This document shows positions 13,132 through 39,243 of a DNA stretch of 44,079 nt, piece after piece. The translations under genes were made by a program, and so were the position numbers. Numbering within the stretch: the first letter of the stretch is position 1; each line of letters starts with the position of its first letter. This stretch comes from Pseudomonadales bacterium. Its GTDB lineage: Bacteria; Pseudomonadota; Gammaproteobacteria; Pseudomonadales; Moraxellaceae. Below the pieces are notes generated by a model. The model worked only from the letters and a program-made list of their open reading frames with translations, had not been told where the DNA came from and ran no database searches. The DNA lies in assembly GCA_013043915.1 (NCBI GenBank), contig JABEVH010000207.1, forward strand, positions 1 through 44,079. Direction: 5' to 3'.

Positions 13132-13164
13132 GTCACGGGCTCCTGGCTTTGAGGATGAGGATTG

Positions 13165-14226: not shown

Positions 14227-14228
14227 AA

Positions 14229-15257: not shown

Positions 15258-15449
15258 AGCAACCGATGAGACGAGATATACCGCCGTGCATGTATCAGGT
15301 TTAGCAAATTTTCAAGCATGAATATGACCTCATAAGGTACCGTGGGTAAACAGCATAAGTAGACAGTGGTTGCACACACGCAACCGATCACCAATACTAG
15401 CATGGTGGTATGGGTGATCATCATGAAAATCAAGTTATGAGAGGCTAGG

Positions 15450-19201: not shown

Positions 19202-19267
19202 GAATGCCTGTTATGCAGTTTGCTTCCTGGAGAAAAACGTAATATGGGTGGTGCATGATGCGGTGTT

Positions 19268-19924
19268 TTATGGCATCTGTTTTGCTTTGGCAAGAATAAA
19301 AAAGTGTGAGTGCATCATGTCGTTGCCTCGCCATAAAGTTAATGCATTAAGTATTTTAAATTTCCAGCTTTTTGTTGTTCCCCATCCAATGACCGAGGTA
19401 GGTTCAAAACCGGCGCGATCTAGCAGGGTCAGCATGGTTTTGCGGGTAAAAAAACGTAGATGAGTACGATCTAAAAGTCCAGAGTCAGTATATTCAAAAT
19501 CCTGAGATTGAAGCAGGTTCCATAGAAGACGATATTGCCGTAGATTGGGGATAGAACAAAATATGCGGGCATCTTGGGTTAGTTTTTGTTTTAGCCCTGC
19601 CAGGAAGGCTTCTGGCCAGATAAGATGCTCTATCACATCATTCAGGCAAATGAGGTTGAAATAATCATCGGGCAGCGCTCCCAAGGCGTTGGAGGCATCG
19701 CCAGGAATGACACGATTAAGTAAACTGGATGCTACCGCCGCTGATTTTTCATCATACTCCATGCCCCAAATTTCCTGATAACCACGTTCACGTTTTAGCA
19801 TGGCGGCAAAGCCACCTTCACCACAGCCTACGTCGAGCAATCGATCACCCAGCATAGGGATGTAGGGCAATAGCTCACGCCTCTCACCTTGGTAGTAGGT
19901 ATCATCTGGACGTGACTTATTCAT
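19268..19924 (-). CDS. Class I SAM-dependent methyltransferase
   Basis: It has motif I LLDVGCGEGGF and post-I/II blocks (...LICLNDVIEHL). Its 218 aa is a typical Methyltransf_11/23 size. Confidence 0.8.
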   Translation of the reverse strand: MNKSRPDDTYYQGERRELLPYIPMLGDRLLDVGCGEGGFAAMLKRERGYQEIWGMEYDEKSAAVASSLLNRVIPGDASNALGALPDDYFNLICLNDVIEHLIWPEAFLAGLKQKLTQDARIFCSIPNLRQYRLLWNLLQSQDFEYTDSGLLDRTHLRFFTRKTMLTLLDRAGFEPTSVIGWGTTKSWKFKILNALTLWRGNDMMHSHFFILAKAKQMP

Positions 19925-20096: not shown

Positions 20097-21497
20097 ATGA
20101 GTGTAGCCATGAGCCAGTTGGACAAACTCTGGGGTGGGCGTTTTCAGGAGCCTACAGACAAATTTGTTGAGGCCTTCACCGCTTCTGTGAGTTTTGATCA
20201 ACGCCTGTATCGCCACGACATACAAGGTTCCGTGGCCCATGCCCGCATGTTGCAGTCCGTCGGTGTGCTGACGGAAGCTGAGTGCTTAAGTATTGTCAAA
20301 GGGTTACAGGAAATCCTTGCCGAGATTGAAGCAGGTAGCTTTGAGTGGCGGCAGGATCTTGAAGATGTGCATATGAACATTGAGTCACGCCTGACCAGTC
20401 GCATTGGTGATGCGGGTAAAAGATTACATACGGGGCGTTCACGTAACGACCAAGTGGCCACCGATATTCGCCTTTACCTGCGCGATGCGGTGGATAGATT
20501 GATGCTACAGCTGCGGCAGTTGATGGAAGGCCTGATCAATTTGGCGGAGCTGGAGGCAGATACCATCATGCCAGGGTTCACGCACCTGCAAACGGCCCAA
20601 CCGATTACCTTGGGGCATCACCTTCTGGCTTGGTTTGAAATGCTGATGCGTGACCTGGAGCGTTTTATCGACCTGCGCAGACGCATTAATCGCATGCCCT
20701 TGGGAGCAGCAGCCCTCGCAGGAACCAGCTACCCCATCGATCGGGCCCTGACAGCAAGCCTTCTGGGTTTTGAAGCGGTATGTGAAAATTCTCTGGATGC
20801 AGTTTCAGACCGTGATTTTGCCATTGAATTTGCTGCAGCCAGCAGTTTGGTGATGATGCATTTATCACGTTTTTCTGAGGAATTGGTACTCTGGTCGTCA
20901 GCCCAGTTTGGATTTGTCGATTTGCCAGATCGATTCTGTACAGGATCTTCGATCATGCCGCAGAAAAAGAATCCGGATGTCCCTGAGCTGGTGCGTGGCA
21001 AGACGGGGAGAGTATACGGACACCTGATGTCGCTACTGACCCTGATGAAGTCACAACCCCTAGCTTATAACAAGGATAATCAGGAAGACAAAGAGCCTAT
21101 CTTTGATACGATCGATACCCTGGCAGGTTGTCTGCGTGCCTTTGCCGATATGATCCCGCACTTAAAGCCTCAGCGTCAGCGCATGCGCCAAGCCGCCTTG
21201 CAGGGATATGCCACAGCAACGGATTTGGCTGATTATCTGGTGCGCAAAAACATACCCTTTCGTGACGCTCATGAAATTGTGGGTAAAGCTGTGCGCTATG
21301 GGGTAGACCAGGGATGGGATCTATCGGTGATGAGCCTGGATCAATTGCGTCAATTTTCTCCCGTCATCGAGCAGGATGTTTTCGAGGTACTGACGCTGGA
21401 AGGTTCGGTTGCATTGCGCAAGCATCGTGGTGGGACGGCTCCCGAGCGCGTACGTCAAGCAGTCAAGGAAGCGCGAGACCGTTTGCGTGGGATCTAG
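20097..21497 (+). CDS. argH: Argininosuccinate lyase
   Basis: KLWGGRF at the N-terminus, SRNDQV, and the fumarate-lyase signature [12 protein letters not shown] are all present. An alternative start is ATG 20109. Confidence 0.95.
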
Positions 21498-21499
21498 TT

Positions 21500-22036
21500 T
21501 CAGCGTGCACAGTCCTTTAGGTGGGCTCGGTATAAAATCTGTTTGACCAGCAGTGCCGTGATGGGAAAGCCCAGTATCAGGGCCACAAATGTGGCTCGAT
21601 CAAGGCCAAGTACTGCAAGATAAGCCAAGGCTACACCGATGCCAGAGTCCATCTGGTCAAGCAGCGTAAATGCCAGCGTAAACCGGCTTGATGTTGCTCC
21701 GGGAGGAATGCCTAATCGCCGCTTCAGAAACGAGTTGGGAAGCTCGGCAAGTACATAACCCAGCCCAGCTGCTAGTCCAGCCAGCAGCATAGGGTGGTGA
21801 TGGTAAGGAGAGTGGGGAACCCATTTATCCCACGGCAGTAACAACAGCGTGCCTAACATGCAAAATAGAGGCATTAGTATCAGGCCGCGCCAGGTTTTAT
21901 TTTGTCCGAAGCTGCGAATATGCAGGGGACGTGCGAGTGAAGGCAGCCATTGCCAGGTCACGGCCATCATGTGCAAGACACCAGCGAAGATCACAGGTAT
22001 GAGTAAATAGAAGGCGAGTAAGACAGTTTGCAGCAT
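21500..22036 (-). CDS. CDP-archaeol synthase-like (CarS / DUF46 family) integral membrane cytidylyltransferase
   Basis: It is 178 aa with about 5 TM helices. The blocks GQNKTWRGL and NSFLKRRLGIPPG...LLDQMD correspond to the GDGKTWRG and SFIKRRxG...DQ blocks of archaeal CarS as I recall them. Its start overlaps the upstream stop by 1 nt (TGATG). Confidence 0.7.
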   Translation of the reverse strand: MLQTVLLAFYLLIPVIFAGVLHMMAVTWQWLPSLARPLHIRSFGQNKTWRGLILMPLFCMLGTLLLLPWDKWVPHSPYHHHPMLLAGLAAGLGYVLAELPNSFLKRRLGIPPGATSSRFTLAFTLLDQMDSGIGVALAYLAVLGLDRATFVALILGFPITALLVKQILYRAHLKDCAR

Positions 22037-22659
22037 CAGCTAGCTCTGCCGGTAAGATCCAGAATCAAAAAAAGTAATGCCCCTCCTAACGTTAATGAGA
22101 GTATTTGCCAAAGACGTGTGAACTTGAAAAATGGCCGGTGTAAAAGCATGGCGTGACTAAATAGCAGTAGCAAGATCAGGGTAAGCAGACGCCATAGGTT
22201 GAGAGTCATGATGCCGTGGATGAGCAGCATGGCTGCCAGCAGAAACAGGCTCCAGAATACCGGCATGCCACGGTAGGCTAACCCCCCCCGTGCATCTTCG
22301 ATATTGCCGGTGTCATTGAATACCGCCAAGCGTATTAGACCACAGCCGACCATGAGTATCAGGCCCACAGACCAGAACCCATTAAAACCTTCACCATACA
22401 GGATGAGTGCGGGGCTTAGCAGGTAGATCAGCACATCCATAAAACCATCAAGATAACGGCCAAAAGGACGTACCAGGCCGAGGTGTCTTGCCAGCATACC
22501 GTCAAGGGCATCACCGAGCATGGCTAAAAAAAGCAGGCTGGTTGCCAGCAAGGGGCGATGGGCCAGGCTGAGTGCCATGGCCAGCATGGTGGTGGGTACG
22601 GCGCTTAAGGTAATGAGGTCAACACGATTCAGGCGAACCAGGTAGTAGGGCGAGTTCAT
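22036..22659 (-). CDS. CDP-alcohol phosphatidyltransferase family protein
   Basis: It matches the family motif D-x2-D-G-x2-A-R-x8-G-x3-D-x3-D exactly: DALDGMLARHLGLVRPFGRYLDGFMD. It is a polytopic membrane protein. Confidence 0.85.
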   Translation of the reverse strand: MNSPYYLVRLNRVDLITLSAVPTTMLAMALSLAHRPLLATSLLFLAMLGDALDGMLARHLGLVRPFGRYLDGFMDVLIYLLSPALILYGEGFNGFWSVGLILMVGCGLIRLAVFNDTGNIEDARGGLAYRGMPVFWSLFLLAAMLLIHGIMTLNLWRLLTLILLLLFSHAMLLHRPFFKFTRLWQILSLTLGGALLFLILDLTGRAS

Positions 22660-24218
22660 GCAGGGCGCCTCGCGTTTAAAGACATCTGGCGTAAGGCCGG
22701 GCGATCAATTTTACTCTGATGCCGACCATCGAGGGGCATGGTGTCGATACGAGTTATGGCAATTGTTTCCAGGCTCATCGAGCTCAGCTGCTCATGTACC
22801 TGTTGATCTGGTGTTGAACCTTGCAAGACTAGCAGAGGACGGTCCTGATGCTTAATAAGAGCACAGCGTTCCATGCCAGGCAGGCTATCAATACGCTTTT
22901 CTATAGGATAGGGCCAAAATACTTGACCTGCATGTTCCACAGAGTCACGAAGACGACCTACCAGCCATAATCTGTTCATATCATCCAGATAACCCGCATC
23001 CCCGGTGCGGTGCCAGACACTACCATCGGCTCGCGGTAGCTTGCTTTCCTGCGTGGCTTGGGGATTGTCCACATACCTTTGCAGCACATGCGCGCCACTG
23101 ACGAGAACTTCGCCTATTTGCCCCGAGGGGCAATATTGCTGGCTGGCAATCTCATCAACGGTATAATCCTGATTTAAGGGCCAGATAGCTATTTCAGCCA
23201 GGTCAGCAGCACGTCCTACGAGGTAACCTTCACCGAAATCCCCCTCTTCAACGAGCTCTCGGCAAGGGAGTGTTGCTATAGGTTCAGCTTCGGTTGAACC
23301 GTAGACAGCGATGACCTCAGCGTGAGAAAAAAGCTGTAGCAGTGATTTAGCCAGATGGGTGGACACGGAGGAACCACCAACAGCGACCTGACGAATCTTG
23401 GGAAGTCGCCCATTAGCTTGCTGAGCATAGTGGCAAAGCCGGTTCATGAATCCCGGGGCCCCTGAGAGACGTGTGACACCTGATCGTTGCAGTTGTTCAA
23501 ACAATCTAGCAGCATCAAATTCGGCGGGATGAGCCAAGTCGATGGCAGGTAATACGGTCGGTAGGCCACAACAGAGATTGTGTAGCACCATGACCGGAAA
23601 GCAGGTGCAATCTACATCATCGTCTTGATCCTGCCAGTGCTGACGCATGGCATGATGTTGCGCTAACAGGCTGGTGTGGGTACGGTCAGCCCCTTTAGGG
23701 CGTCCTGTGCTGCCTGAGGTAAATGTAATCAACCCGTGCGCCTGATGCGGTAAGGGTTGGGCGCGGGCTGCTGCCTGTTGACTCAGGTCTAGACGGCGTA
23801 CTCCCCTTGACTGTCCATCGAAGGCCAGTCGACGCATACGCCAGAGCGGGGGTACTAACCACCACGAGCGCAGCAACGACAGCTCACCCATCGCAAAACG
23901 AGCGCCACTGCTGGAGATGGCAGAGAGTATGCGCGAGCGGCTCATTCCCCGATCAAGCAGTACGGCTACCATGCCTAAACCGAGGAGGGCCAGGGTGAGA
24001 ACGTAGAGCTCATAGCGTACACGCGAAAGAATCAGGACACGATCGCCTGCATGCCCACCAGCCTGTTGCAGGGCGTGTTGGTAGCACCCTATATCCTGAA
24101 TCAGGGACTGGTAGGTCCAGCTATGTTCCTGTCCTGATTCATCAGGTAGCGTTAAAGCTATACGGTCAGGGTGTTCCTGGCCAGCTAGAAGGATAGGGCT
24201 CAACAGATTTTTGTTCAT
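22656..24218 (-). CDS. Adenylate-forming enzyme (AMP-dependent synthetase/ligase superfamily)
   Basis: The core motifs are TFTSGSTGRPKG (A3), YGSTEAEP (A5), HRTGD (A7) and the C-terminal lysine block DGRHQSKIDR (A10). Confidence 0.85.
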   Translation of the reverse strand: MNKNLLSPILLAGQEHPDRIALTLPDESGQEHSWTYQSLIQDIGCYQHALQQAGGHAGDRVLILSRVRYELYVLTLALLGLGMVAVLLDRGMSRSRILSAISSSGARFAMGELSLLRSWWLVPPLWRMRRLAFDGQSRGVRRLDLSQQAAARAQPLPHQAHGLITFTSGSTGRPKGADRTHTSLLAQHHAMRQHWQDQDDDVDCTCFPVMVLHNLCCGLPTVLPAIDLAHPAEFDAARLFEQLQRSGVTRLSGAPGFMNRLCHYAQQANGRLPKIRQVAVGGSSVSTHLAKSLLQLFSHAEVIAVYGSTEAEPIATLPCRELVEEGDFGEGYLVGRAADLAEIAIWPLNQDYTVDEIASQQYCPSGQIGEVLVSGAHVLQRYVDNPQATQESKLPRADGSVWHRTGDAGYLDDMNRLWLVGRLRDSVEHAGQVFWPYPIEKRIDSLPGMERCALIKHQDRPLLVLQGSTPDQQVHEQLSSMSLETIAITRIDTMPLDGRHQSKIDRPALRQMSLNARRPA

Positions 24219-25336
24219 GTACGTAGATTCCCGCAGTACAGCGCGTAATGATGCATACGGGTCGTACCATGACGCTGAGCAAAATGAGCCGATGCATTAT
24301 CTTCTCGTACCAGAGCCGCAGCAATCTGCTCATAATGCCCTTGGGCTCGCAAGGTCAGCTCGCAGCTCATGGCGGTGAATAACCCCATGTCCCGGTAATC
24401 GGGATGAACGGCCGCCGTGCGAGCCAGTAACCGACGTGGATGGGGTAACTCGGACCGATGCCTGTCATAGTGCAAAGCTGATAAAGATATCGGCCTTGTT
24501 CCGTGCACGCGCAAAAGTGGGCTGTAGTCAGGATAGGCCAGAAAGAAACCGGCAATAGCACCATCGCTGGTTTCTGCTCTTAGGGAGGTCAGTGGGCAAA
24601 ATCGATCAGCAAAGGGATGACCACAATGATTACGAAAGGCTTTCAAAGATAGCGGCGTATATGCAAAATTGTCGGCAAATGACTGTTGAACAAAATCATA
24701 GAGCTGATCCAGATCCCTTAACCAGTCCTCAGGCAGCATGGGTAGCAAGCGGACTTTTCCTTGCATGCGCTTATTGACGCGTTCAAGGTCCTTGCGAACA
24801 TTGACCACGGTATCTTCTACCGAGGTAAAGGTGGAGAGATAACGGTAACAGGAGGTTAGGCCCAACGATTGCATGAGCTCAGCATAGTAGGGTGGATTCC
24901 AGGGCTCTCCGGGAAATGCACCTGCCTCGAAAGCATCGAGACGCACACGGTAAGCCCCGTAGGTGGTAAAATTGATAGGTCCATAAATTTTCTTCGCCCC
25001 TTTAGCTTCAGCCCAGGTTTTTAGTGCGTTAAATAATGTTGCATTGGCCTCAGGTACATTCATGGTTTCCCAATAACCAAAGAATGCAGCCTGTTCACCC
25101 TGAATAAGCTGCCCAGGCAGTATAAAGCCAGCCAGTCGAGCCTGATGCGGAATCAGTCCCACCCAAGCATGCCCCTGCTCAAACCAGGTATTGGCAACAC
25201 TAAAGGCTTGTTGTACCGATGCAGAGTCTTCACCCAACCAATAGGGATCCTCTGCATAAATCTGAGCAGGCAGATCAAGGAAGTCTGCAGGTAGCGAGTC
25301 CTGCGCAGGATCCCAGGTACCTTGCCATAGCATCAT
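24215..25336 (-). CDS. Hypothetical protein, possible GNAT-fold acyltransferase
   Basis: It is 373 aa and soluble. The C-terminal segment LARTAAVHPDYRDMGLFTAM resembles GNAT motif A (V.P.YRG.G). It overlaps both neighbours by 4 nt. The function is uncertain. Confidence 0.45.
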   Translation of the reverse strand: MMLWQGTWDPAQDSLPADFLDLPAQIYAEDPYWLGEDSASVQQAFSVANTWFEQGHAWVGLIPHQARLAGFILPGQLIQGEQAAFFGYWETMNVPEANATLFNALKTWAEAKGAKKIYGPINFTTYGAYRVRLDAFEAGAFPGEPWNPPYYAELMQSLGLTSCYRYLSTFTSVEDTVVNVRKDLERVNKRMQGKVRLLPMLPEDWLRDLDQLYDFVQQSFADNFAYTPLSLKAFRNHCGHPFADRFCPLTSLRAETSDGAIAGFFLAYPDYSPLLRVHGTRPISLSALHYDRHRSELPHPRRLLARTAAVHPDYRDMGLFTAMSCELTLRAQGHYEQIAAALVREDNASAHFAQRHGTTRMHHYALYCGNLRT

Positions 25337-28044
25337 GAGCTGCTCCGTAATTCTTGGCGTATGATTTTCCCGCTAGAACCATCCATGCGAACATGCTCGC
25401 CATCCTTAATACAACGTGTGATGCCTGGAATGCCGACAATGGCGGGTATACCGAGCTCCCGCGCCACCACGGCCGAGTGGGAAAGTGTCGAGCCGCGCTC
25501 AACCAGCAGTCCGCCAACCGTTGGAAATAAAGGGGCCCATCCTGGATCAGTTCTCATGGTGCATAAGATTTGGCCATTGAGGCTCAGTTCATCTTCGGGA
25601 GAGAAAATAAGCCGCACCGGGGCTTCGACGATGCCCGGGTAACATCCCGTCCCCTTTAACTCTAGTCCATCGGCTGACAGGGCTGAATCTTCTTCCGGTC
25701 CATGATAGGGCCCGGGGTGATTGGCCATACCGTAGGTCCACACCTGGGGCCCGGGTTCCTGATCACTATAACGAGCATATTCCTGCTGTCTCAGTTGAAC
25801 CAGGCCTGGTAGATTAGTCTGAATGGCTCGTCCATCATGCAGCGCATAAATTTCATCCAGGGTCAGATAAAAAATATCGCGGGCTTGAGTTAAGTAAGCA
25901 CTGCTTGCCAACTGCTGCCCTAATTCCAAAAAAATATCTCGGTATAAACCGAATAAACGTGTGCGCGCCAGACGCATGCTCTCACGATAACGAACAGCAT
26001 GGCGCAGTTGTTGCAGTTGGTGCTGAAACCGGCGCAACGGCCGAGAACCTAAGCGTTCCTTGATGCGGGCAAATGCTTGAGCTTCAGCCTCGGATCGGAA
26101 GCCGGCCTCGCGCAGGGTCAATGTGTCCGGACCCAAGTCATCACGGGTCAGATAATTGCGCAAAATGGCAAAGAGAAAAGAGGGATCCTGGCGCAGGGTC
26201 ATAGATTCAAGTTTTAGCTCCCCCATGCACCGGTCACCGTAGCACTCAATATAAGCCTGGCACTGCTCATAAAACGTAGGATCAAGAATCTGTAACCTTG
26301 CCAGTATCATGCTTTGGTCACTGGCCTCGACCAAGGCCCGTGCGGGTGGATGTAGCCTCAGGTAGGCGCACATACGCAGCAGCATCTTGGTGGGTTCAGT
26401 ACTTTCGATGCCCTCTTCACCTGAGAGGAGGTTGTTTTGTAACAATGAGGGCTCAGAAAATCCAGCAGCAACCAGGGTTCGATGTACACGCCCATTCATC
26501 ATCATGACATAGAAATCATTGATGATAGGGGTGGTCCAGCGTTGCAAAAGTTCAAGATCCAGCTGTTTTAAGGTGCTTACCAGGGCTGCACTGTCCAGCG
26601 TATGCAACAGGTTACGGTCGATATGGGCATAGACGTTCTCAAAGTGTTCACGAAAATTGCGAACGCGCGCCTCCATGTTTTGAAAGCCCAAAAAGAGATG
26701 GAACAGGGCACGCAAAACCTGAGGCAGGCGGTGCAGTTTTTCCCGCCAGCTGAACGTGGTGTCCTGAATCAGATCCACAGGCTGAGTCAGGCCCATCATG
26801 CGTTCCATGTCGGCCTTGTTGGTCCGAAATGAGGGCAAAAGCAGAAGGCCACGATACCAGTTATTGATGTTGTAGTAGATGCGTCCATGCAGCAAGCCCA
26901 ACATATTGCCGAGCATGGAGCGATGGGCTTCAATAACGTGTTCAGATATGCCCAGAATACGCATGGTCTGTTCATACACGGTGGCATAGGCTTGGCTAGC
27001 AAAAGAGAACGTCAGGGGAGTCGTGACGCCACAATAGGACTCTTGAATATTGGCATTATCAAATACCGTCAGGGGGGTGGTTTCCTGCGGCGCAGGTAAC
27101 TGGGTAATCGGTCGGGTTTGCAGGATAAAAAATTGACCTTGCCGGTAAGTCCATTCAATATCCTGCGGGGCGCGTTGCAGATGGGCAATGCGTAATCCAA
27201 TATCGCGCAGGTTGAGTATGTTTTCAGGGCTAAGGCAGGGTTCCTGCCGGCGTACCAGATCTACCGTGCTTTCGCAGGTTCCTTGGCCTTTCGCATGATC
27301 AAATATGAGAGCCGTATCTTTCTCGGCGATCTGTGACTTGATATGACTATCAAATAGTCCCACGCTATAATCATCGGCATTGCACAGGCCGCTGACCAGA
27401 CCTTCCCCCAGACCCCAGGTGGCTGAAATCAAAGCCTGGTCCCTCTGGCCAGTGACCGGGTGTGCGGTAAACATCACCCCGGAGACCTCACCGTCCACCA
27501 TATCCTGCAAGATAATGGCAGAGCGTATATCGTCCAGAGGCAAGCCACGTGTCAAGCGATACTGCAAGGCACGGGCATTATAGGCGGATGCGGCTACATG
27601 CAAGATGGCGGCTTCGAGATGGCCAAGTCCTCGCTGAAACAGCAGGCTATCCATCTGACCGGCAAACGAGGCGCCTTCGGCATCTTCGCCGACGACCGAG
27701 GAACGTACAGCAAGGAAGAGGTCTTCACGGCCTGTTAGCCAAGTCTTTAGAGGGTGGCGCAGATCATCAGGAAAAGTAGCCTGATACCAGAGAGACTGGA
27801 TTTGGTGGGCGGCAACTTCGATTTCCTGGAAACTTGACGTGCGATGTATTCCTTGCATAGACCGCTGGATCTGGTCATGCAAACCCAGCTGTTGCAGGAG
27901 CAGTGCCCAGGCTTGGGTGGTAAGCACGGCCCAGCGCGGCACAGCTAGTCCTGCGCGTGTCAATTCAGCTAGATGAGCGGCTTTGCCACCCAGAGCATCG
28001 GTACCTAATCCCAGGGCCTGTTCCTGTGTCAATAACATATTCAT
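25333..28044 (-). CDS. PEP-utilising-enzyme family phosphotransferase with rifampicin-phosphotransferase-like architecture (N-terminal ATP-grasp, central domain, C-terminal swivel His domain)
   Basis: The N-terminus has LGGKAAHLAEL..., AVRSSVVGEDAEGASFAGQ, GVMFTAHPVTG...WGLGEGLVSG and PQDIEWTY..FFILQTRPIT. The C-terminus has GIVEAPVRLI...ILCTMRTDPGWAPLF...GGLLVERGSTLSHSAVVARELGIPAIVG (phospho-His motif). It has no C-terminal PEP/pyruvate TIM-barrel, so it is not a true PpsA. Confidence 0.8.
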   Translation of the reverse strand: MNMLLTQEQALGLGTDALGGKAAHLAELTRAGLAVPRWAVLTTQAWALLLQQLGLHDQIQRSMQGIHRTSSFQEIEVAAHQIQSLWYQATFPDDLRHPLKTWLTGREDLFLAVRSSVVGEDAEGASFAGQMDSLLFQRGLGHLEAAILHVAASAYNARALQYRLTRGLPLDDIRSAIILQDMVDGEVSGVMFTAHPVTGQRDQALISATWGLGEGLVSGLCNADDYSVGLFDSHIKSQIAEKDTALIFDHAKGQGTCESTVDLVRRQEPCLSPENILNLRDIGLRIAHLQRAPQDIEWTYRQGQFFILQTRPITQLPAPQETTPLTVFDNANIQESYCGVTTPLTFSFASQAYATVYEQTMRILGISEHVIEAHRSMLGNMLGLLHGRIYYNINNWYRGLLLLPSFRTNKADMERMMGLTQPVDLIQDTTFSWREKLHRLPQVLRALFHLFLGFQNMEARVRNFREHFENVYAHIDRNLLHTLDSAALVSTLKQLDLELLQRWTTPIINDFYVMMMNGRVHRTLVAAGFSEPSLLQNNLLSGEEGIESTEPTKMLLRMCAYLRLHPPARALVEASDQSMILARLQILDPTFYEQCQAYIECYGDRCMGELKLESMTLRQDPSFLFAILRNYLTRDDLGPDTLTLREAGFRSEAEAQAFARIKERLGSRPLRRFQHQLQQLRHAVRYRESMRLARTRLFGLYRDIFLELGQQLASSAYLTQARDIFYLTLDEIYALHDGRAIQTNLPGLVQLRQQEYARYSDQEPGPQVWTYGMANHPGPYHGPEEDSALSADGLELKGTGCYPGIVEAPVRLIFSPEDELSLNGQILCTMRTDPGWAPLFPTVGGLLVERGSTLSHSAVVARELGIPAIVGIPGITRCIKDGEHVRMDGSSGKIIRQELRSSS

Positions 28045-30776
28045 AACACCGTTCCCTCATGAGACCAGAGATCCCGAAAACTGCGGTAGGCTCGCTCCAT
28101 GAATCCATAGTGACGGAAGGTGTGTGCCATCAGATACAGGGGCATGCGGGTTACCATGATATCCATCAGAGCCAGGGTGTAGCCGCGACGCCAACGAACC
28201 GGATCCAGCGTTTGCCCGCTGTGACGCTCAAGTTCTTGTCGATGCAGCTCGATATAGTGTTCTACATCATGGGTATCTACCGGGTCATACAGCGTAAAGC
28301 CTAGCAACTCCACCAAATCATGTTGAGGAAGATGTAAGGTGGCTAGTTCCCAGTCATAGGCACATAGCCGCAAACTGCCGTCTTTCAGGCGACGGAAGGC
28401 GATATTGCGCGGATTAAAGTCATTGTGGACCAGGGTACGTGGCATGGTTTCGATCTCAGGCCACCAGTGCTCAAGGGTATGAACAACGCTGCGAAACTTC
28501 GACAGGTCATCTTCTGAGAACCATTCTGGAAACTCTTCCCGGGCATGTGCACCGAGCAGTTCCCAGAGTCGAAGTTTGTCCTGCATGCCATGGGCATGAG
28601 GGTAATCGACCAACCAGGGTTGCTGTTTGAGTTCATCTTCGCGCCCAAGCCAGATACTGTGAACTTCGGCTATGCCCCTAATGGCGGCATCAATATGTTC
28701 GCGCGTCCAGGAGGACGTATCATCCGCTGTGTCCATGAGTTCAAGCCAGGTCAGATGTTCCTGGATGAGTACATAGGCCTCACGTTCAGTATCGGCAAGT
28801 ACGCCGTAGGTGATAGGTGCATGACGCTGAAAGCGTGGATCCTGCTGGCTCATGACCATCAGTTCACGCGTATGACAGCCCCGGAATCCCAAGTGTTGCT
28901 TGCAGCGGTTGAACTCTTGCGCCAAACGGGGGTTGCACATGGCGGCAAGGCTATTGAGCATGAGAATGACTTCGTCATCCAGGGGTTTGATCTTGACCAT
29001 CACATCCAGGTTGCCGGCGCTAGTTTTGAGCCGAAAAGGAAAGTGCCCCAGGATTTTATTGACTTTGTGAGAAGTCAGTTCGGTGATAATGCTTGATCCC
29101 GCCATCTTGATGGTTAGCGCAGTAACCTCCTGCACACGCAGCGTATGTAACCCGGTAGCTGCGATAATGCTATCGAAGAACTGCGCATCTAGCTGACCGA
29201 GTTTGAGATGATCGACCGGTCGATTGCGCCCGAGTTTTTCATGGGCGCGTGCAAACTGGTCAGAAGCGATGGCAGACAGGGTAGAGATATCCAGGGCAAG
29301 ACAGTAACCAGCCATAATTTCAGCCAGCTTATGGGCCTTACCGGGGCCAGCACAGCCCATGATGTCCAGGCATTCACGTTGTTGTGGCAAATTGGTACCA
29401 CCTCCTACGGTACCTATGACCAGGGAGGGTAACATCATGGTGCAATAGACATCCCCAGCTTCGGTGAGCTCCATATGCAGTTGGGCCAAGGCTGACTCAT
29501 GAACACAGGCAATATCCTGACCCAGAGCCGTGAAGAGAGCGGCGATCACGTTGGCAACGTTGATGTTCATACCGACCATGCCGCCAGCAATTGATCCGGC
29601 ACAACAGTAGTTGTAGGCGGAAACCAGTTGCCTTGGCGATACTTTCAGGATGCGCTCACAGATGTCTTGTCGAAGCAGCGCTTCGGCGACGACACGTATG
29701 CCCCGGCCATTTAAGAAGGTCTGGTAGGTCACCTTTTTGTCGTTGGACAGATTGGCATCGATGAGAAAGTTCTCAACGCGCAGCCCCTCAAATCCCTGAA
29801 TAGATTTCAGGATCCATTGGCAAATCTGCCAGCTGCATGTAGTCGTCATGTTCTGTCCGGCAGCATCGCCAGTACGATAAATCAGGTGTACATGCACAGA
29901 CCTCCCAAAAACAAAGGGACGCACGGCACGCAGGCTTGCGTAGTTGGAATAGCGCTGTGTTTCGGTTGCCATTTCATCAAAGTGATCCTTCACCCACTCG
30001 GCAAAAAAAAGGGCATTGGCCATGTCACCGAAGACAAATACCGGCACCCGCATCATGCGCTGCTCAATCACGCGAGCTGCGACGCCCCCGGATCGCGACA
30101 GCGCTGTGGCTCCCCGCGTTGTTGAAGCCACCAGAGCTCCCTCAGACGTGGCCATGGGTGCATAATACAGACCTTGCGCGTGTTCTCCGCGCAGATGCAA
30201 GGGACCGGCGATGCCGACGGGAACCTCTACGGAGCCAATCAGCGCCTCGATATTACTGACGAGCTTGCGTGGATCCAGGCTAAGCTTACTCACCGATTCA
30301 AGCTGACAACGCGTTTGTTCGCGTACAAATCCCAAACGTTCCTGTCGCGCCTCTTCGGTATAAAGACCTCGCGCCGGTATCTTGGGTAAATTGGTTTCAT
30401 CATAAATCGTGGGGTCGGATGGGGTGTTGCAAGAGCGCATCAGGTAACAGATTTCCCAGAGCTGATGGCGTGTCTCCGTACAGTCATCGCCATGAAGGAA
30501 TAATTCCCAGCCCCCTTCCTTGCGCTCTACACAACGGTGTACAGACATTCCCGGTATTTCAAAACGCCTGGATTCAACATCCAGTTGCAGTTCGCTAAGA
30601 TGTTCTCCCTCCTCAGGCGGTTCCTGTCTGGCATCAAGCCAGCAGATTAGCTGATTGCGGCCGATAGCATGAGGCGTGGCTTGAATGGGCTTTCCTTGCG
30701 TGGTCCAAGCTTGAATACGAGCACCCGCCGTAAATCCATAACGCGTGGTGTATCCGTAAGCAGGTAATTGTGACAT
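28041..30776 (-). CDS. Tri-partite fusion: unknown N-terminal domain (~130 aa), class-I-like HMG-CoA reductase catalytic domain, and C-terminal APH-type (aminoglycoside/choline-kinase-like) phosphotransferase domain
   Basis: HMGR blocks are IEALIGSVEVPVGIAGPL, MATSEGALVAST, DAAGQNM, SNDKKV...NGRG, GTVGGGT and the C-terminal His (ARAHEKLGRN). The kinase catalytic loop is LVHNDFNPRNIAF, and the metal-binding motif is AYDWELA. Confidence 0.8.
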   Translation of the reverse strand: MSQLPAYGYTTRYGFTAGARIQAWTTQGKPIQATPHAIGRNQLICWLDARQEPPEEGEHLSELQLDVESRRFEIPGMSVHRCVERKEGGWELFLHGDDCTETRHQLWEICYLMRSCNTPSDPTIYDETNLPKIPARGLYTEEARQERLGFVREQTRCQLESVSKLSLDPRKLVSNIEALIGSVEVPVGIAGPLHLRGEHAQGLYYAPMATSEGALVASTTRGATALSRSGGVAARVIEQRMMRVPVFVFGDMANALFFAEWVKDHFDEMATETQRYSNYASLRAVRPFVFGRSVHVHLIYRTGDAAGQNMTTTCSWQICQWILKSIQGFEGLRVENFLIDANLSNDKKVTYQTFLNGRGIRVVAEALLRQDICERILKVSPRQLVSAYNYCCAGSIAGGMVGMNINVANVIAALFTALGQDIACVHESALAQLHMELTEAGDVYCTMMLPSLVIGTVGGGTNLPQQRECLDIMGCAGPGKAHKLAEIMAGYCLALDISTLSAIASDQFARAHEKLGRNRPVDHLKLGQLDAQFFDSIIAATGLHTLRVQEVTALTIKMAGSSIITELTSHKVNKILGHFPFRLKTSAGNLDVMVKIKPLDDEVILMLNSLAAMCNPRLAQEFNRCKQHLGFRGCHTRELMVMSQQDPRFQRHAPITYGVLADTEREAYVLIQEHLTWLELMDTADDTSSWTREHIDAAIRGIAEVHSIWLGREDELKQQPWLVDYPHAHGMQDKLRLWELLGAHAREEFPEWFSEDDLSKFRSVVHTLEHWWPEIETMPRTLVHNDFNPRNIAFRRLKDGSLRLCAYDWELATLHLPQHDLVELLGFTLYDPVDTHDVEHYIELHRQELERHSGQTLDPVRWRRGYTLALMDIMVTRMPLYLMAHTFRHYGFMERAYRSFRDLWSHEGTVL

Positions 30777-30786
30777 ACGCGCAGCC

Positions 30787-31728
30787 TTAAGTTCCGTGGG
30801 CTGTCAGGCAGACAGCCATGATGACGCCATACCCCATCAGCATATTCATGGCAACGGCTTTTTCATTAGCTTTGCGCTGAGCGCTGGAGGGGTTGTTCTG
30901 GTAGTGATGTACTTGTCGTAGGGCCATGGCCCAACTTGCAATGATCAAACCCAGCATCCATAGCGGTAACTGCGGAAACAGTTCAAGCAGCAGGGCGCTT
31001 TGCAACAGCAACATGCCGGACACCAACCCCATGATGACCTTGGCGGCGAGGTGAGGGCCAAAAATTTTTGAGTAGGAGTCGACTCCTTCCTGTTCTTCCT
31101 CGGGTCCTTTGGTTTTGCGAGTGATTTCAAAGCAAAAACCGCTGGCAAAGGCCAGTAACATAAGCGTGATCAGAGAGGTATCTGGCAGGATGGAGGGAAC
31201 GGCCATTCGGGCCAGCCAGAAAACAATCAGGGGCATGACCAGCATATGTGAGATGGCATACCAGGTCAGGTGGCGAGTTAACCAGTCAGCTATAAAAAAT
31301 TCACGGGTCATCAGCACAGTCCAGGTAGCCATGATGCCCCAGGCGATGAGAATGGCTCCATGGGCATCGAAAACAAGAGCAAATCCCACTTGCATGAGTA
31401 CGCAGAGAAGAGCTATCCACCTCAAATCGCGTAGCGTGATCAGTCCTTGCTGTAATACCCGTTCAGGGTGGTGCAGGCAGTCACCGCTATAGTCCTTATG
31501 TTCATCCAGAATGCGTAGCGTTAAAAAGAAACTCCATGTCACTAAAGCACCCAGCACATCATAGGCATGCAGTAGTGGCCTCAGATGCATGGTTTGCCTG
31601 CTGACCACCGCCGTGGTGGCGTACAGGATAAAAAACAACAGGGCATTGGGGAGAGCAAAGCGTTCATGAACCCAGGCCATAAAACGTTGAACCCAGGGGC
31701 TTTGAAGGGTTAGTGAATTTGAAGGCAT
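30787..31728 (-). CDS. UbiA-superfamily prenyltransferase-like integral membrane protein
   Basis: It has 8-9 TM helices. The first Asp-rich loop is RILDEHKDYSGD...HPERVLQQGLI, and a second acidic loop is EEEQEGVDSYSKIFG. It is the first gene of the operon. Confidence 0.65.
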   Translation of the reverse strand: MPSNSLTLQSPWVQRFMAWVHERFALPNALLFFILYATTAVVSRQTMHLRPLLHAYDVLGALVTWSFFLTLRILDEHKDYSGDCLHHPERVLQQGLITLRDLRWIALLCVLMQVGFALVFDAHGAILIAWGIMATWTVLMTREFFIADWLTRHLTWYAISHMLVMPLIVFWLARMAVPSILPDTSLITLMLLAFASGFCFEITRKTKGPEEEQEGVDSYSKIFGPHLAAKVIMGLVSGMLLLQSALLLELFPQLPLWMLGLIIASWAMALRQVHHYQNNPSSAQRKANEKAVAMNMLMGYGVIMAVCLTAHGT

Positions 31729-31750
31729 AAAACTAGCTCCGAAAAAAAAC

Positions 31751-31779
31751 TAAATAGCCAGAATCTGCACAGCTGGCAA
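31751..31779 (-). promoter_or_regulatory. Candidate sigma70-type promoter for the UbiA-led operon (TTGCCA-N17-TATTTA)
   Basis: Read on the minus strand, TTGCCA is at 31779-31774, followed by a 17-nt spacer and TATTTA at 31756-31751. This lies about 23 nt upstream of ATG 31728, with GGAG 8 nt before the ATG. The call is motif-only. Confidence 0.25.
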
Positions 31780-31886
31780 TCTTTGGTACTTAAATAGCTA
31801 TTAACTTGTCAGTATAGGAGAACTGTGAGCGCTTACCGCCCATTAAACAGGAAAGCTGATGAGATCTTGAGAAGAATGTTTTTAGC

Positions 31887-32807
31887 TCAGAACGTCAAAC
31901 TTAAGATCACCCCCAGTTCTTCATTCGGGAAGATATTGTCGGTATGGGTATAATAGTCGCTGTAGAAGCGCAAGAGTGTACTGCCTGCCGGATGGAGTTC
32001 CAGATAAACGCTGACATACTGAGTGGCATTTAAGGTATCCACCGTCGGCGGTTGGTAGTTGAAGGTAATCCCTGGCCATAGATAGCGATAGGCTGTACAC
32101 GCCATATCCAGTGAGGCGTAGGGAAAACTATGGTAGTTCTCCGCATTACTGCCGACATGGGTATAGCCGCCAGTCAAGGTGGTTTGCAGGTCATGAAGTC
32201 GGGCTGTGGTGGCAAACTCGGCGCTGATGTCGCGTGTCCCGGTCCCCAATCCTGATGAGGCATCACCGTTATCATTTTTGCCCACGATGCCGACGTATCC
32301 GCTCCAGACAGAACCCAGGCTCCAGTTTCTCAAGAACTCCAGGCTGATATCCGACCATCCTGTCGCCATTTGATCTGATTGGGAATGGATACGAATATGG
32401 TGAGTACGACAATAATTAATTTCAGCTGAGGTCAAGAGGCCGCGCGCTATTTGTTCCCGAATCTGCTTCGGCTTCAATCCTGCCAATCGTCGGCAGAGTA
32501 GTCGAGGTGAGGGCCCCAAACTCGTGATATAGGTGTTGCCCAAAATACGCTGATAGGGCGCAATCAGGGCCAGTTCCCAAGGACCGTGATCGATGAAAGG
32601 GCGAAGCGTCATGGTCTCTAAGGTGCTAGTGCTGGTGTTATAGGCTTGGTGCTCAAGGCTGGGCGTAAGGGTCATTCCCGGAGACCAAGAATTTAGCTGG
32701 GCCGGTGTGGCGTAAAAATCCAGGATTTCGTCATCGTTTAAACTCGTGTCAGCCAGGCAAGCGCAAGAAACTACCAGACTGAGTCCAAGTATCCATTTCA
32801 CCCACAT
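31887..32807 (-). CDS. Putative outer-membrane beta-barrel protein (unknown family)
   Basis: It has a signal peptide (MWVKWILGLSLVVSCACLA), alternating aromatic/hydrophilic beta-strand-like segments, and the terminal ...VILSLTF with a C-terminal Phe typical of OMPs. It lies 27 nt downstream of the DUF3106 gene. Confidence 0.45.
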   Translation of the reverse strand: MWVKWILGLSLVVSCACLADTSLNDDEILDFYATPAQLNSWSPGMTLTPSLEHQAYNTSTSTLETMTLRPFIDHGPWELALIAPYQRILGNTYITSLGPSPRLLCRRLAGLKPKQIREQIARGLLTSAEINYCRTHHIRIHSQSDQMATGWSDISLEFLRNWSLGSVWSGYVGIVGKNDNGDASSGLGTGTRDISAEFATTARLHDLQTTLTGGYTHVGSNAENYHSFPYASLDMACTAYRYLWPGITFNYQPPTVDTLNATQYVSVYLELHPAGSTLLRFYSDYYTHTDNIFPNEELGVILSLTF

Positions 32808-32834: not shown

Positions 32835-33329
32835 TTACTGGCGCAATTTCATGATCATATCACGGCGCATTTGTTGTCGTTCAGCCGGGCTGGCATTTTT
32901 GAATTTGTCATGTAAGGCTTGACGCTCCTGCGGCGTCATATTAGCCCAGGCCTGACGTAATGCCTTTTGTTGGTCTTCAGGAAGACTCATGAACCAGCGA
33001 AAACGATCACGTATCCGCGCCTGTTCTGCAGGGGGGAGGTGCTGAAATTTTTCAAAGCGTTCGCGCAGTCGCAGTTTCTGCTCTTCCGGCAAGGCTTGCC
33101 AGCGTTCAAAACGTGCACGAACATCAGCTTGTTCGTCAGGAGACATGCGCTGGTAACTGGCAAAGCGCTGTAGTATACGTTCGCGCTGTACTGCCGGTAG
33201 GGTATTCCAGCGCGGGGCTAAAGGGGCCAAAAGCTGCTGAGTAGCTGGCGGCAACGTATTCCAGTCAGGGGCATCAGCCTGAGCCAATAAACTGGCCAGG
33301 CTCAAGCAAAACAGGATCCAAAGTTTCAT
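32835..33329 (-). CDS. DUF3106-like secreted repeat protein
   Basis: It has a signal peptide and about 7 degenerate ~20-aa repeats of the form [WF]xx[LM]PxxEQxxxRxRF (for example RFERWQALPEEQKLRLRERFEKFQHLPPAEQARIRDRFRWFMSLPEDQQ). It has the usual genomic partners, an ECF sigma factor and DUF3619. Confidence 0.65.
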   Translation of the reverse strand: MKLWILFCLSLASLLAQADAPDWNTLPPATQQLLAPLAPRWNTLPAVQRERILQRFASYQRMSPDEQADVRARFERWQALPEEQKLRLRERFEKFQHLPPAEQARIRDRFRWFMSLPEDQQKALRQAWANMTPQERQALHDKFKNASPAERQQMRRDMIMKLRQ

Positions 33330-33571: not shown

Positions 33572-33896
33572 GAGGGTCCTCGGCAATAGCCTGCAGCATG
33601 GGCATATCATCCAGCATCTGCAGATCAGCGGGAGAAAGCGAGCTGACAGCAGGTACTGACATAGGCTTAGTGCGTGTGGTTTGTAAGGTCAGTCCCAACA
33701 CCACCAGTCCCATGGCCAGCATACTGCCAGGAAGCCAAACGACAGGGCGATGCCACCAGGCTGGAGTAGCCTTAGCCTGAAGGGCATCCAAACGAGCTTG
33801 TCTCAGGGCGTGGGCGATCGGGGCAGGAACCTCCTGCGAACCTAGCTCCAGGGTTTGACGCAAGGTCTTAGCCAGTTCTTCATCTCGCTGCTTCAT
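33561..33896 (-). CDS. DUF3619-like single-pass membrane protein (putative anti-sigma or regulatory partner of the ECF sigma factor)
   Basis: It overlaps the sigma-factor stop by 4 nt. It is a short protein with a cytoplasmic N-terminus and one TM segment (VVWLPGSMLAMGLVVLGL). Its position is as in ECF/DUF3619/DUF3106 clusters. Confidence 0.55.
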   Translation of the reverse strand: MKQRDEELAKTLRQTLELGSQEVPAPIAHALRQARLDALQAKATPAWWHRPVVWLPGSMLAMGLVVLGLTLQTTRTKPMSVPAVSSLSPADLQMLDDMPMLQAIAEDPHAS

Positions 33897-34435: not shown

Positions 34436-34525
34436 AACCGCACTCCACCCGGCAAAATCGCATGCCATGCTACCCATAAAAGTTGATTCCACGCTAACGA
34501 TTACACTCAGTAACGTCGGCGCACC

Positions 34526-34551
34526 CGCTAGCGTTGACAGCAACGCTAGCG
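34526..34551 (-). repeat. Perfect 11-bp inverted repeat with a 4-nt loop (CGCTAGCGTTG-ACAG-CAACGCTAGCG) spanning the mshQ stop codon
   Basis: I read it directly from the sequence. The mshQ stop TAG (34548-34546) lies in the right arm. No U-tract follows on the minus-strand transcript. Confidence 0.9.
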
Positions 34552-39240: not shown

Positions 39241-39243
39241 GGC

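Follow-up and report, generated by a model that had tools for sequence, protein, structure and literature searches.

A recurrent seven-gene operon with a reductase-kinase fusion in Gammaproteobacteria, a candidate route to a phospholipid built from fatty alcohol

Contig JABEVH010000207.1 (44,079 nucleotides, assembly GCA_013043915.1; hereafter the window, meaning the whole stretch analysed) from a Moraxellaceae genome of the Pseudomonadales carries, at positions 21500-31728, seven co-directional minus-strand open-reading frames (ORFs) in which a reductase-kinase fusion gene lies among genes for three membrane-lipid enzyme families, a dikinase, an acyltransferase and a ligase. We propose, with confidence that is about evenly balanced, that this conserved operon turns a fatty alcohol into a non-canonical phospholipid through two sub-modules that share a CarS-like enzyme, the product being probably destined for the cell envelope. 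The material for this comprises active sites, family placement, conservation, gene fusions and gene neighbourhoods, from which we infer all of the enzyme activities. In order of transcription, the genes are as follows.

30787..31728, minus strand, UbiA-superfamily membrane transferase, 313 aa with ~9 transmembrane helices
28041..30776, minus strand, reductase-kinase fusion, 911 aa
25333..28044, minus strand, Rph-like dikinase, 903 aa
24215..25336, minus strand, orf373, tandem-GNAT acyltransferase (predicted), 373 aa
22656..24218, minus strand, adenylate-forming acid-CoA ligase, 520 aa
22036..22659, minus strand, cytidine diphosphate (CDP)-alcohol phosphotransferase, PssA-like, 207 aa
21500..22036, minus strand, CarS-like membrane cytidine triphosphate (CTP)-transferase, 178 aa with 5 hydrophobic helices

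The UbiA and fusion genes are separated by a 10-nt gap (30777-30786), four of the following junctions are ATGA start/stop overlaps (28041-28044, 25333-25336, 24215-24218 and 22656-22659) and the last is a TGATG overlap at 22036, an arrangement which indicates translational coupling; the stop codon of the convergent argH gene (TAG, 21495-21497) lies 2 nt from that of the CarS-like gene. Coordinates, strand, lengths, junctions and the argH distance all match exactly a preliminary description of this DNA that had been made from the letters and an ORF list alone. The domains which that description had read from motifs are likewise found by profile search, with every expected Pfam family above its gathering cut-off (PF01040; PF00368 with PF01636; PF01326 with PF00391; PF00501; PF01066; PF01864), and a motif check and alignments show intact catalytic motifs in all cluster enzymes. 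In NCBIfam, no cluster protein reaches the cut-off of a characterised equivalog (HMGR, Rph, PigC, PssA, CarS or archaeal-type prenyltransferase).

The reductase-kinase fusion

The fusion protein divides into three domains.

30372..30776, minus strand, N-terminal domain of ~135 residues, poorly conserved, W107 invariant
29220..30371, minus strand, FcrA-type reductase domain, class I HMGR homologue, residues ~136-519
28041..29219, minus strand, APH/EcKL-fold small-molecule kinase domain, residues 520-911

FcrA, published in 2025, is a large bacterial and haloarchaeal clade of "class I HMGR" proteins that are fatty acyl-CoA reductases (PMC11948995). Its members reduce acyl-CoA of at least C14 to the alcohol with NADPH, do not reduce 3-hydroxy-3-methylglutaryl (HMG)-CoA and are statin-insensitive; they keep the catalytic Glu/Lys/Asp/His, and their HMG pocket has Glu in place of Ser684, a small residue in place of Lys735 and Trp in place of Leu862 (PMC11948995). 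We aligned the window reductase domain, which matches PF00368 at E 1e-116, to solved HMGRs and compared 45 fusion homologues. The catalytic tetrad (E212, K347, D421 and H512, equivalent to the catalytic Glu559, Lys691, Asp767 and His866 by which FcrA is recognised) is invariant in all 45. At the three HMG-pocket columns, S684 has become Glu (41 sequences) or Asp (4), K735 is Asn (22), Gln (16), His (4) or another residue (3), and L862 is Phe in all 45. Stand-alone relatives recovered in a genome scan (L005-L008) carry Glu, then Asn, Gly, Ser and Ser, then Trp at the same positions, and the genuine archaeal HMGR 6hr7 carries Ser, Lys and Leu. The window domain shares 40-45% identity with the stand-alone FcrA-like proteins versus 36% with the genuine archaeal HMGR, and on the class I HMG-CoA reductase model TIGR00533 it scores 288 against a cut-off of 441.8. 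Because the tetrad is invariant and all three HMG-binding residues are replaced in every sequence compared, we predict that the domain is an FcrA-type fatty acyl-CoA reductase, converting acyl-CoA and 2 NADPH to fatty alcohol, and that it is not a mevalonate enzyme; the generic HMGR chemistry of the preliminary description gives way to this more specific assignment.

The N-terminal domain is not the Lad domain (PF25653), which some FcrA proteins have and others do not (PMC11948995): the window protein and five orthologues miss PF25653 and phmmer finds no similarity, while the N-terminal extension of L005 matches at 8e-44. A PilZ identity was also rejected for the window family, the weak PilZ match being confined to a distant FcrA-kinase fusion (36% identity) at 9578-12349 of L004, an unrelated bacterium in which the other six genes are absent. 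That fusion has a weakly PilZ-like N-terminus (E 0.003) and adjoins a HEAT/STAS/PilZ protein at 6341-8269, which hints at cyclic di-GMP control of this variant.

The kinase domain scores 32.3 bits on PF01636 (cut-off 23.2), and its invariant residues K595, K597, H784-N-D-F-N-P-R-N791 and D808-W-E810 supply the beta-3 Lys, HxDxxxxN loop and metal-binding motif of the APH/EcKL kinases. An exhaustive search with this domain returned 823 representative proteins (50% identity), 274 of them at E <=1e-30, and we tabulated the architectures of the best 150 of the 823. Among these 150, the kinase stands behind a FAR-type ("Male sterility", NAD_binding_4) short-chain dehydrogenase/reductase in 62, behind an HMGR/FcrA-type reductase in 38 and alone, often as a short protein, in 50, so that FAR-type fusions outnumber the HMGR/FcrA-type (family representatives include P0396, P0420, P0404 and P0409). 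P0396 joins an AMP-ligase, a FAR reductase and the kinase in a single chain of 1486 aa. The two reductase types have unrelated folds, and both yield primary alcohols from acyl thioesters. Since one kinase family is repeatedly fused to two unrelated alcohol-forming reductases, the fused APH-fold kinase very probably phosphorylates a fatty alcohol. We regard these reductase-partner fusions as the strongest new evidence for the acid-to-alcohol-to-phosphate module suggested in the preliminary description, which the FcrA signature residues also favour. According to a preprint (PMC13596139), 1-O-alkylglycerols are the substrates of the APH-fold kinase domains in ACAD10/11, which employ a DWE motif as the window kinase does, and ACAD11 was the sole APH-type match of the fusion-family profile in the PDB (E 0.03). 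If the proposed model is right, fatty alcohol kinase is a likely function for a large family of unannotated "phosphotransferase" proteins.

Membrane enzymes, dikinase, acyltransferase and ligase

Relatives of the UbiA and CarS-like proteins were found by means of profiles and structure prediction, single-sequence PDB searches with both having returned no matches at E up to 10. The UbiA protein passes PF01040 marginally (35.3 bits, cut-off 34.2) and falls just below NF004617 (218.7 against 239), an uncharacterised model with a generic name. In the orthologue alignment its first acidic motif, D75-E-H-K-D79-x-x-x-D83, is invariant; the region of the second motif holds an acidic patch (E210-E211-E212...D217, of which E211 and E212 are invariant) and no canonical DxxxD. 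Its AlphaFold2 (AF2) model, with a predicted local distance difference test score (pLDDT) of 90.9 and 9 long helices, is matched by Foldseek to the M. jannaschii digeranylgeranylglyceryl phosphate (DGGGP) synthase 6m31/7bpu at E 8e-7 with template-modelling (TM) scores of 0.66/0.72. This enzyme ranks ahead of ApUbiA, AfUbiA and UBIAD1, the TM range across DGGGP synthase and UbiA structures being 0.64-0.72. A phosphoribosyltransferase of the Rv3806c type, using phosphoribosyl pyrophosphate (PRPP), is disfavoured by the structure (E 0.45, TM 0.49). As an archaeal DGGGP synthase equivalog the protein falls far short, its best archaeal-type model, NF009523, giving 29.6 against 269, and neither a geranylgeranylglyceryl phosphate (GGGP) synthase nor a glycerol-1-phosphate (G1P) dehydrogenase (EgsA) was seen in any locus examined.

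The CarS-like protein scores 24.5 bits on PF01864 (cut-off 22) and matches the CDP-archaeol synthase model NF003114 over its full length at E 9e-10, its 38.7 bits lying below the equivalog cut-off of 148. Seven of ten orthologues match PF01864 and five of ten match the CdsA family PF01148; a profile of the ten finds A. pernix CarS (5guf) alone in the PDB (E 0.005), in an alignment that spans the conserved motifs. With its 5 transmembrane helices and the family motifs GxxKTxxG, SFxKRRxG and DQxD, seen here as invariant FGxNKTWRG, ELPNSxxKR and DQxDS, it has the features of the CarS family, and we predict that it joins CTP to a lipid or alkyl phosphate to give a CDP-lipid or CDP-alkanol. The CDP-alcohol transferase (PF01066, 5e-13) carries the perfect motif that had been noticed earlier, D50ALDGMLAR-x8-G-x3-D-x3-D. 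Its best NCBIfam match is pssA TIGR00473, at 58.7 versus a cut-off of 107, which does not make it a PssA equivalog, and its best PDB match is the M. jannaschii phosphatidylserine synthase 7b1k/7pow (E 2e-9). The nearest solved relatives of all three membrane enzymes are thus archaeal, in line with the archaeal-type lipid enzymes of the preliminary description; the likeness to the archaeal trio is real at the level of family and fold, and none of the three is an orthologue.

The dikinase combines an ATP-grasp PPDK_N domain (PF01326, 4e-73) with a swivel domain (PF00391, 4e-21) whose motif, GSTLSH856SAVVAR, places the catalytic His at H856. It passes the uncharacterised model NF004883 (generic name phosphoenolpyruvate (PEP) synthase) with 1346 against 1063, and remains below the Rph equivalog NF041857 (334.6 against 999) and PigC (281 against 1300). 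Its best PDB match is the Listeria rifampin phosphotransferase 5fbs/5hv1 and its orthologues carry the Rph_4th domain; we predict from this family placement that it phosphorylates a hydroxyl, possibly a phosphate, of a hydrophobic substrate.

For orf373 no Pfam or NCBIfam model scored above threshold, and 195 homologues were found, including one of 59% identity in Fluviicoccus keumensis, which makes a related member of the Moraxellaceae the probable source of the window. A profile search of the PDB gave weak GNAT matches, and an AF2 model built on a 50-sequence alignment (pLDDT 95.7) was matched by Foldseek to 7q3a, 2wpw, 1ozp and 5kf2 (E 1e-12 to 1e-9). The best PDB neighbours are MAB_4324, MshD, the clavulanate tandem GNAT and a glucosamine N-acetyltransferase; top matches are tandem GNATs (E 6e-12), with moderate TM scores of 0.5-0.6. 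We are confident, on the model, that orf373 has a tandem-GNAT fold, as its earlier reading as GNAT-like had anticipated. Because R315 is invariant and G318 nearly so in the C-terminal GNAT domain, fitting the R/Q-x-x-G-x-G/A acyl-CoA-binding motif, the enzyme is probably acyl-CoA dependent. An aminoacyl-tRNA transferase of the FemX/MprF type is less likely, given its lower TM scores (0.36-0.39) and the presence of the RxxG motif. The ligase (PF00501, 6e-46) just passes the uncharacterised, generically named NF006754 (484.9, cut-off 478), and its A3, A5, A7 and A10 motifs are intact, as expected of the ANL family.

Conservation, variant loci and flanks

The operon is not the orphan that the preliminary description took it for: the same seven-gene set, mostly in the same order, recurs in ~20 genomes and metagenome contigs that are independent of one another, often beside an MMPL/RND exporter. 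A genome scan and exact-protein look-ups gave the full set in L002, L003, L012-L016, L018 and L019, and a metagenome scan added 9 further complete seven-gene loci. Carriers include gamma proteobacterium HdN1, Atopomonas sediminilitoris, Bacterioplanoides sp., Alkalimarinus coralli and metagenome-assembled genomes (MAGs) of Moraxellaceae, Oleiphilaceae and other groups. The closest relative of the window organism, L014, has a fusion protein 92% identical to that of the window, and the fusion protein is found in >120 database clusters at 56-92% identity. The cluster is conserved over several gammaproteobacterial orders. The arrangement goes far beyond what chance would give, being found again with proteins 40-90% identical in genomic settings that are unrelated, and since the flanking genes differ between genomes the seven genes move as a unit. 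Genes of the set have also been fused to one another, ligase with CDP-alcohol transferase in HdN1, CDP-alcohol transferase with CarS-like in Bacterioplanoides and ligase with CarS-like in L018. An MMPL/HAE3-type RND transporter gene adjoins the UbiA gene in six loci (genome assemblies and protein look-up), directly upstream in five and divergent in L003, and in three of the six (HdN1, Atopomonas and the Moraxellaceae MAG L016/L017) genes for a LolA-like protein and a ~428-aa protein precede the transporter.

Two further observations concern individual carriers. In the Enterobacterales isolate Budviciaceae bacterium BWR-B9 (L020, 3812-13728), UbiA is split into 129 + 174 aa and the dikinase into 831 + 91 aa, the fusion and CarS-like genes are shortened and an ABC-2 transporter precedes the cluster in the place of MMPL; the split genes could be gene decay or assembly errors. 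A double-length 6-pyruvoyl-tetrahydropterin synthase (PTPS) gene (283-294 aa) on the opposite strand adjoins the cluster in HdN1 (L012, 20732-21616) and in Alkalimarinus (L019, 2054-2905), an adjacency in two unrelated genomes that may be coincidence.

The metagenome scan was seeded with a CarS-like alignment, and all cluster genes were mapped onto the 80 loci that it returned, among which four types were distinguished.

Type A, the canonical seven genes, 9 complete loci plus partial contigs
Type B, CarS-like, UbiA, Rph-like and sometimes GNAT, without reductase, kinase, ligase or CDP-alcohol transferase, 9 loci
Type C, FcrA-kinase followed directly by CarS-like, 13 loci
Type D, CarS-like followed by a FAR-type reductase, 3 loci

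In the type C locus L077 the FcrA-kinase and CarS-like genes stand alone among housekeeping genes with an 8-nt overlap, and in L046 the order is FcrA-kinase, CDP-alcohol transferase, CarS-like. The type D locus L097 runs CarS-like, FAR reductase, CDP-alcohol transferase and LPG_synthase_TM, all of which abut or overlap. Loci with reductase-kinase and CarS-like genes that have no UbiA or dikinase, together with type B loci that have no reductase, point to the window operon being the union of two sub-modules sharing the CarS-like enzyme: ligase, reductase, kinase, CarS-like and CDP-alcohol transferase in the first; CarS-like, UbiA, dikinase and GNAT in the second. The replacement of FcrA by FAR beside the CarS-like and CDP-alcohol transferase pair is a non-orthologous displacement, and it would tie the alcohol phosphate directly to CDP activation.

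Some of these loci hold additional genes. Those of the type B locus L056 encode a P450, a tandem GNAT (E 5e-21 against the orf373-type profile), a LolA-like protein and an ABC exporter of the MacB type; the cytochrome P450 (13785-15089) lies inside the operon, where it might supply a hydroxyl in the reductase's place, and a 979-aa class III aminotransferase fusion (16208-19147) adjoins the operon. The LPG_synthase_TM gene of L097 (12071-12961, MprF-type flippase-like) is translationally coupled to the CDP-alcohol transferase and is followed downstream by a phosphoesterase of the phospholipase C/acid phosphatase family. Two L097 ORFs of 417 aa and 392 aa, on a high-GC contig, look spurious and match none of the cluster profiles.

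Upstream of the operon in the window lie the following features.

31729..31886, minus strand, leader upstream of the UbiA gene, 158 nt, sequence read
31887-32807, minus strand, 306-aa outer-membrane-like protein with signal/lipobox-like N-terminus and C-terminal Phe, no Pfam match
32835-33329, minus strand, DUF3106 protein, co-directional with the operon
33893-34543, minus strand, extracytoplasmic-function (ECF) sigma factor, co-directional with the operon

The leader has a GGAG Shine-Dalgarno sequence ~8 nt 5' of the UbiA ATG and a TATACT -10-like hexamer with no recognisable -35. A sigma-70 consensus scan of its 158 nt called no promoter, so that the plausible promoter earlier assigned to it is not borne out, and no ECF-type motif was obvious in it by eye. 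The trio of 306-aa protein, DUF3106 protein and ECF sigma factor is common only to the window and L014, with a possible role in regulation of the operon or in the service of its product. GC is 0.528 within the cluster and 0.506 outside, and nothing marks the cluster as a mobile insertion, neither flanking repeats nor mobile-element signatures nor a compositional break having been found. Plus-strand ORFs antisense to the fusion gene (28545-29096 and 29817-30259) and to the UbiA gene (31109-31492), of 102-183 aa, have no support and were taken as chance ORFs.

Further out, an envelope-polysaccharide island (11007-19924) of lower GC (0.43-0.48) lies between algZ/algR-like two-component genes and argH, with a heptosyltransferase, two Glyco_trans_1_2 proteins, a Wzy_C ligase/polymerase, an AlgX-like SGNH and MBOAT pair for O-acylation and a methyltransferase. 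Upstream of the ECF sigma factor, an MSHA-type pilus cluster (34546-44014) syntenic with L014 encodes an MshQ-like DUF6701+PA14 protein (1168 aa), several N_methyl pilins, T2SSF and an MshE-type ATPase with MshEN.

Proposed route, alternatives and known systems

In the route that we propose, the ligase would turn a long-chain acid into acyl-CoA, the FcrA-type domain would reduce this with NADPH to a primary alcohol and the fused APH-fold kinase would convert the alcohol to an alkyl phosphate, from which the CarS-like enzyme, with CTP, would make a CDP-alkanol. The PssA-like transferase would then move the alkyl-phosphate onto a hydroxyl acceptor, for which serine is the first candidate, yielding an alkyl-phospho-headgroup lipid. 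UbiA and the dikinase would add a second hydrophobic group or prepare the acceptor, most plausibly by an ether-forming alkyl/prenyl transfer from a phosphorylated donor, and the tandem GNAT may N-acylate the head-group amino with acyl-CoA. Where present, the MMPL/HAE3-type RND pump with its LolA-like partner, or an ABC/MacB exporter, may carry the lipid to the outer membrane. For the first sub-module the sequence evidence is strong and the activities are predicted; the role suggested for the second is less certain. More tentatively, the CDP-alkanol may be a third class of bacterial CDP-lipid intermediate beside CDP-diacylglycerol and CDP-archaeol, in Gammaproteobacteria and other phyla, feeding glycerol-free alkyl-phosphodiester envelope lipids, UbiA-made non-isoprenoid ether envelope lipids, or both. 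If this is true, fatty-alcohol kinases would have their first known members in the kinase family of 823 representatives (50% identity).

Several points weigh against this proposal. To our knowledge, neither CDP-alkanols nor glycerol-free alkyl-phosphodiester lipids are established bacterial metabolites. The cluster holds two phosphotransferases, and the Rph-like dikinase has no definite substrate in the model. Characterised FcrA has Trp and Gly/Ser where the fusion pocket has Phe and Asn/Gln, and the acyl substrate may for this reason be something other than a simple long-chain fatty acid; the N-terminal domain is not the FcrA Lad domain. Across the variant loci the CarS-like relatives share no more than 33-53% identity, so that their substrate may differ between locus types, and because the metagenome scan was seeded with this protein its position as the hub is partly built in. 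Lastly, the window and L014 have no MMPL transporter, the upstream trio taking the place of the MMPL and LolA-like genes.

The main rival, itself unlikely, is a linear route in the archaeal style, close to the self-contained pathway of the preliminary description. The APH-fold kinase and, after it, the dikinase would each add a phosphate, turning the alcohol into an alkyl diphosphate; UbiA would put the alkyl on glycerol phosphate as an ether, GNAT/PlsC would acylate it, the CarS-like enzyme would CDP-activate it and the PssA-like enzyme would add the head group. Such a route has a job for every one of the seven enzymes, solved structures place the three membrane enzymes nearest to DGGGP synthase, CarS and PssA, which act consecutively in archaea, and the CarS-like and UbiA genes are adjacent in the 9 type B loci. 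The displacement of polyphosphate from a primary carbon by SN2 chemistry has a precedent in S-adenosylmethionine synthetase. A supply of alcohol for ether lipids is also proposed in the FcrA paper (PMC11948995). However, L046, L077, L079 and L097 have reductase-kinase or FAR genes with CarS-like, sometimes with the CDP-alcohol transferase, and have neither UbiA nor dikinase, so the chain works without its supposed middle steps; the acid-alcohol-phosphate part of the earlier reading stands, and the obligatory order of kinase, UbiA, CarS-like and CDP-alcohol transferase does not. The chemistry would also be unusual, since known UbiA enzymes take allylic diphosphates or PRPP and not saturated alkyl diphosphates, known Rph/PEP-synthase members phosphorylate hydroxyl or enolate oxygens and not phosphates, and GNATs are mainly N-acyltransferases, and no locus examined has a homologue of the G1P dehydrogenase or GGGP synthase.

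An allylic donor, chemically orthodox for a DGGGP synthase-like enzyme, would be available if the cluster salvaged isoprenoids, the ligase and reductase acting on phytenic, farnesoic or geranylgeranoic acids and the allylic prenol passing via prenyl diphosphate to UbiA and an isoprenoid ether or phospholipid. Several carriers are hydrocarbon-degrading or marine (HdN1, Marinobacter, Oleiphilaceae, Bermanella), and the Trp of FcrA proposed to exclude branched chains (PMC11948995) is replaced here by Phe, which could admit a 3-methyl branch. We nevertheless find salvage decidedly improbable: characterised FcrA takes straight-chain acyl-CoA (PMC11948995), the same kinase family also has FAR-type partners, which reduce fatty acyl substrates, and no isoprenoid-specific gene occurs in any locus examined. 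An alternative mevalonate route, with the HMGR domain making mevalonate, the APH-fold kinase and dikinase standing in for mevalonate and phosphomevalonate kinases and UbiA using the isoprenoid, is scarcely tenable. It could draw on the strong HMG-CoA_red match (E 1e-116), the intact tetrad and the two kinases, but the three HMG-pocket residues are replaced in 45/45 family members, enzymes with this pocket signature do not reduce HMG-CoA (PMC11948995) and the kinase family is fused to FAR-type fatty acyl reductases as well. No mevalonate-pathway genes were found across the whole 44-kb window, and neither the window nor any locus has an HMG-CoA synthase, decarboxylase or isopentenyl diphosphate isomerase, in keeping with the earlier statement that this is not an ordinary mevalonate operon. 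The product might instead be a secreted or specialised amphiphile (a surfactant, signal or lipid carrier) that the exporter secretes and not a structural membrane lipid, which we consider rather improbable. The patchy distribution of the cluster in varied contexts, its apparent decay in the Budviciaceae isolate, the associated RND, ABC or MacB exporters, the type B P450 and aminotransferase with their resemblance to secondary metabolism and the many oil-associated carriers would all suit such a product; against it, the LolA-like partners suggest outer-membrane delivery, not secretion, and there are no non-ribosomal peptide or polyketide synthase genes. It largely overlaps the route from fatty alcohol to envelope phospholipid, the destination alone being different.

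The full-text literature covered, outside which most subscription journals fall, holds no description of the seven-gene cluster, the reductase-kinase fusion, a fatty alcohol kinase or the coupling of a CarS-like enzyme to one of the latter two; neither the Lipocone paper nor the FCB-group paper on archaeal lipids bears on the cluster, and the source annotations call its proteins only "phosphotransferase", "prenyltransferase", "PEP synthase" or "hypothetical". The enzyme families and CDP-activated lipid assembly are known, whereas the reductase-kinase fusion and the seven-gene combination are apparently undescribed, with a substantial chance that they lead to a new class of lipid intermediate and product. 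This agrees with the statement in the preliminary description that no characterised bacterial pathway is known to have this gene set. Taken as a whole, its interpretation is partly supported: the 178-aa and 313-aa proteins do fall in the CarS-like (PF01864) and UbiA (PF01040) families, the seven genes do recur outside this genome, no known product was found for them, and nothing that it had named as telling against it was found.

If the proposed route is right, there would be a bacterial way to a membrane lipid that starts at fatty alcohol phosphate and not at the acylation of glycerol phosphate, with homologues of archaeal DGGGP synthase, CarS and PssA at work in ordinary aerobic Gammaproteobacteria. 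This bears on the lipid divide, through the portability of archaeal membrane enzymes, and on lipid biomarkers, as alkyl and ether lipids of sediments are usually credited to anaerobes or myxobacteria. It also bears on the function of FcrA outside wax-ester producers, where its authors left its role open while noting that it frequently serves routes other than wax esters and suggesting ether-lipid alcohol supply; their paper mentions neither a kinase fusion nor this gene set (PMC11948995). Because cultured carriers exist (Fluviicoccus keumensis, Atopomonas sediminilitoris, Alkalimarinus coralli, Bacterioplanoides sp. SCSIO 12839 and HdN1), the pathway hypothesis is directly testable.

Compared with FcrA of Natronomonas pharaonis and Ca. 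Promineifilum breve (PMC11948995), the window reductase has the same catalytic Glu/Lys/Asp/His, the same change of Ser to an acidic residue, loss of Lys and change of Leu to a bulky aromatic, and the same lack of mevalonate genes nearby. It differs in its fused C-terminal kinase, in having another N-terminal domain in place of Lad/PF25653, in Phe for the FcrA Trp and Asn/Gln for Gly/Ser, and in a gene that belongs to a phospholipid-type operon and does not stand beside a wax synthase. With the archaeal line from DGGGP synthase through CarS to archaetidylserine synthase the cluster shares the three membrane-enzyme families, here within one operon, and the best solved relatives are archaeal (6m31/7bpu, 5guf, 7b1k). 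All three proteins are however far below the NCBIfam equivalog cut-offs, the host is gammaproteobacterial, no G1P dehydrogenase, GGGP synthase or geranylgeranyl diphosphate synthase lies nearby, the predicted hydrophobic input is a fatty-acid-derived alcohol and not an isoprenoid, and in variant loci the CarS-like gene is coupled directly to the reductase-kinase.

The kinase resembles the 1-O-alkylglycerol kinase of ACAD10/ACAD11 (PMC13596139) in its APH fold, HxD...N loop and DWE metal motif, and that enzyme too is fused to another lipid enzyme, its substrate being a long-chain lipid alcohol of ether-lipid metabolism (PMC13596139). In sequence the two are only marginally related, the window kinase is joined to an alcohol-forming reductase and not to an acyl-CoA dehydrogenase/HAD phosphatase, and the predicted substrate is a free fatty alcohol. 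The dikinase has the ATP-grasp, Rph_4th and swivel-His architecture of the Rph and PigC/RedH dikinases, but falls in a separate NCBIfam equivalog, NF004883, and is embedded in a lipid operon. Finally, the myxobacterial ElbD (ligase-ACP-FAR reductase-PlsC) and AGPS routes likewise have an acid-to-alcohol module that feeds a specialised lipid, and the ligase-FAR-kinase chain of P0396 is the counterpart of this layout within the kinase family; the cluster has no AGPS or PlsC, and its alcohol is predicted to be phosphorylated, not exchanged onto acyl-dihydroxyacetone phosphate.

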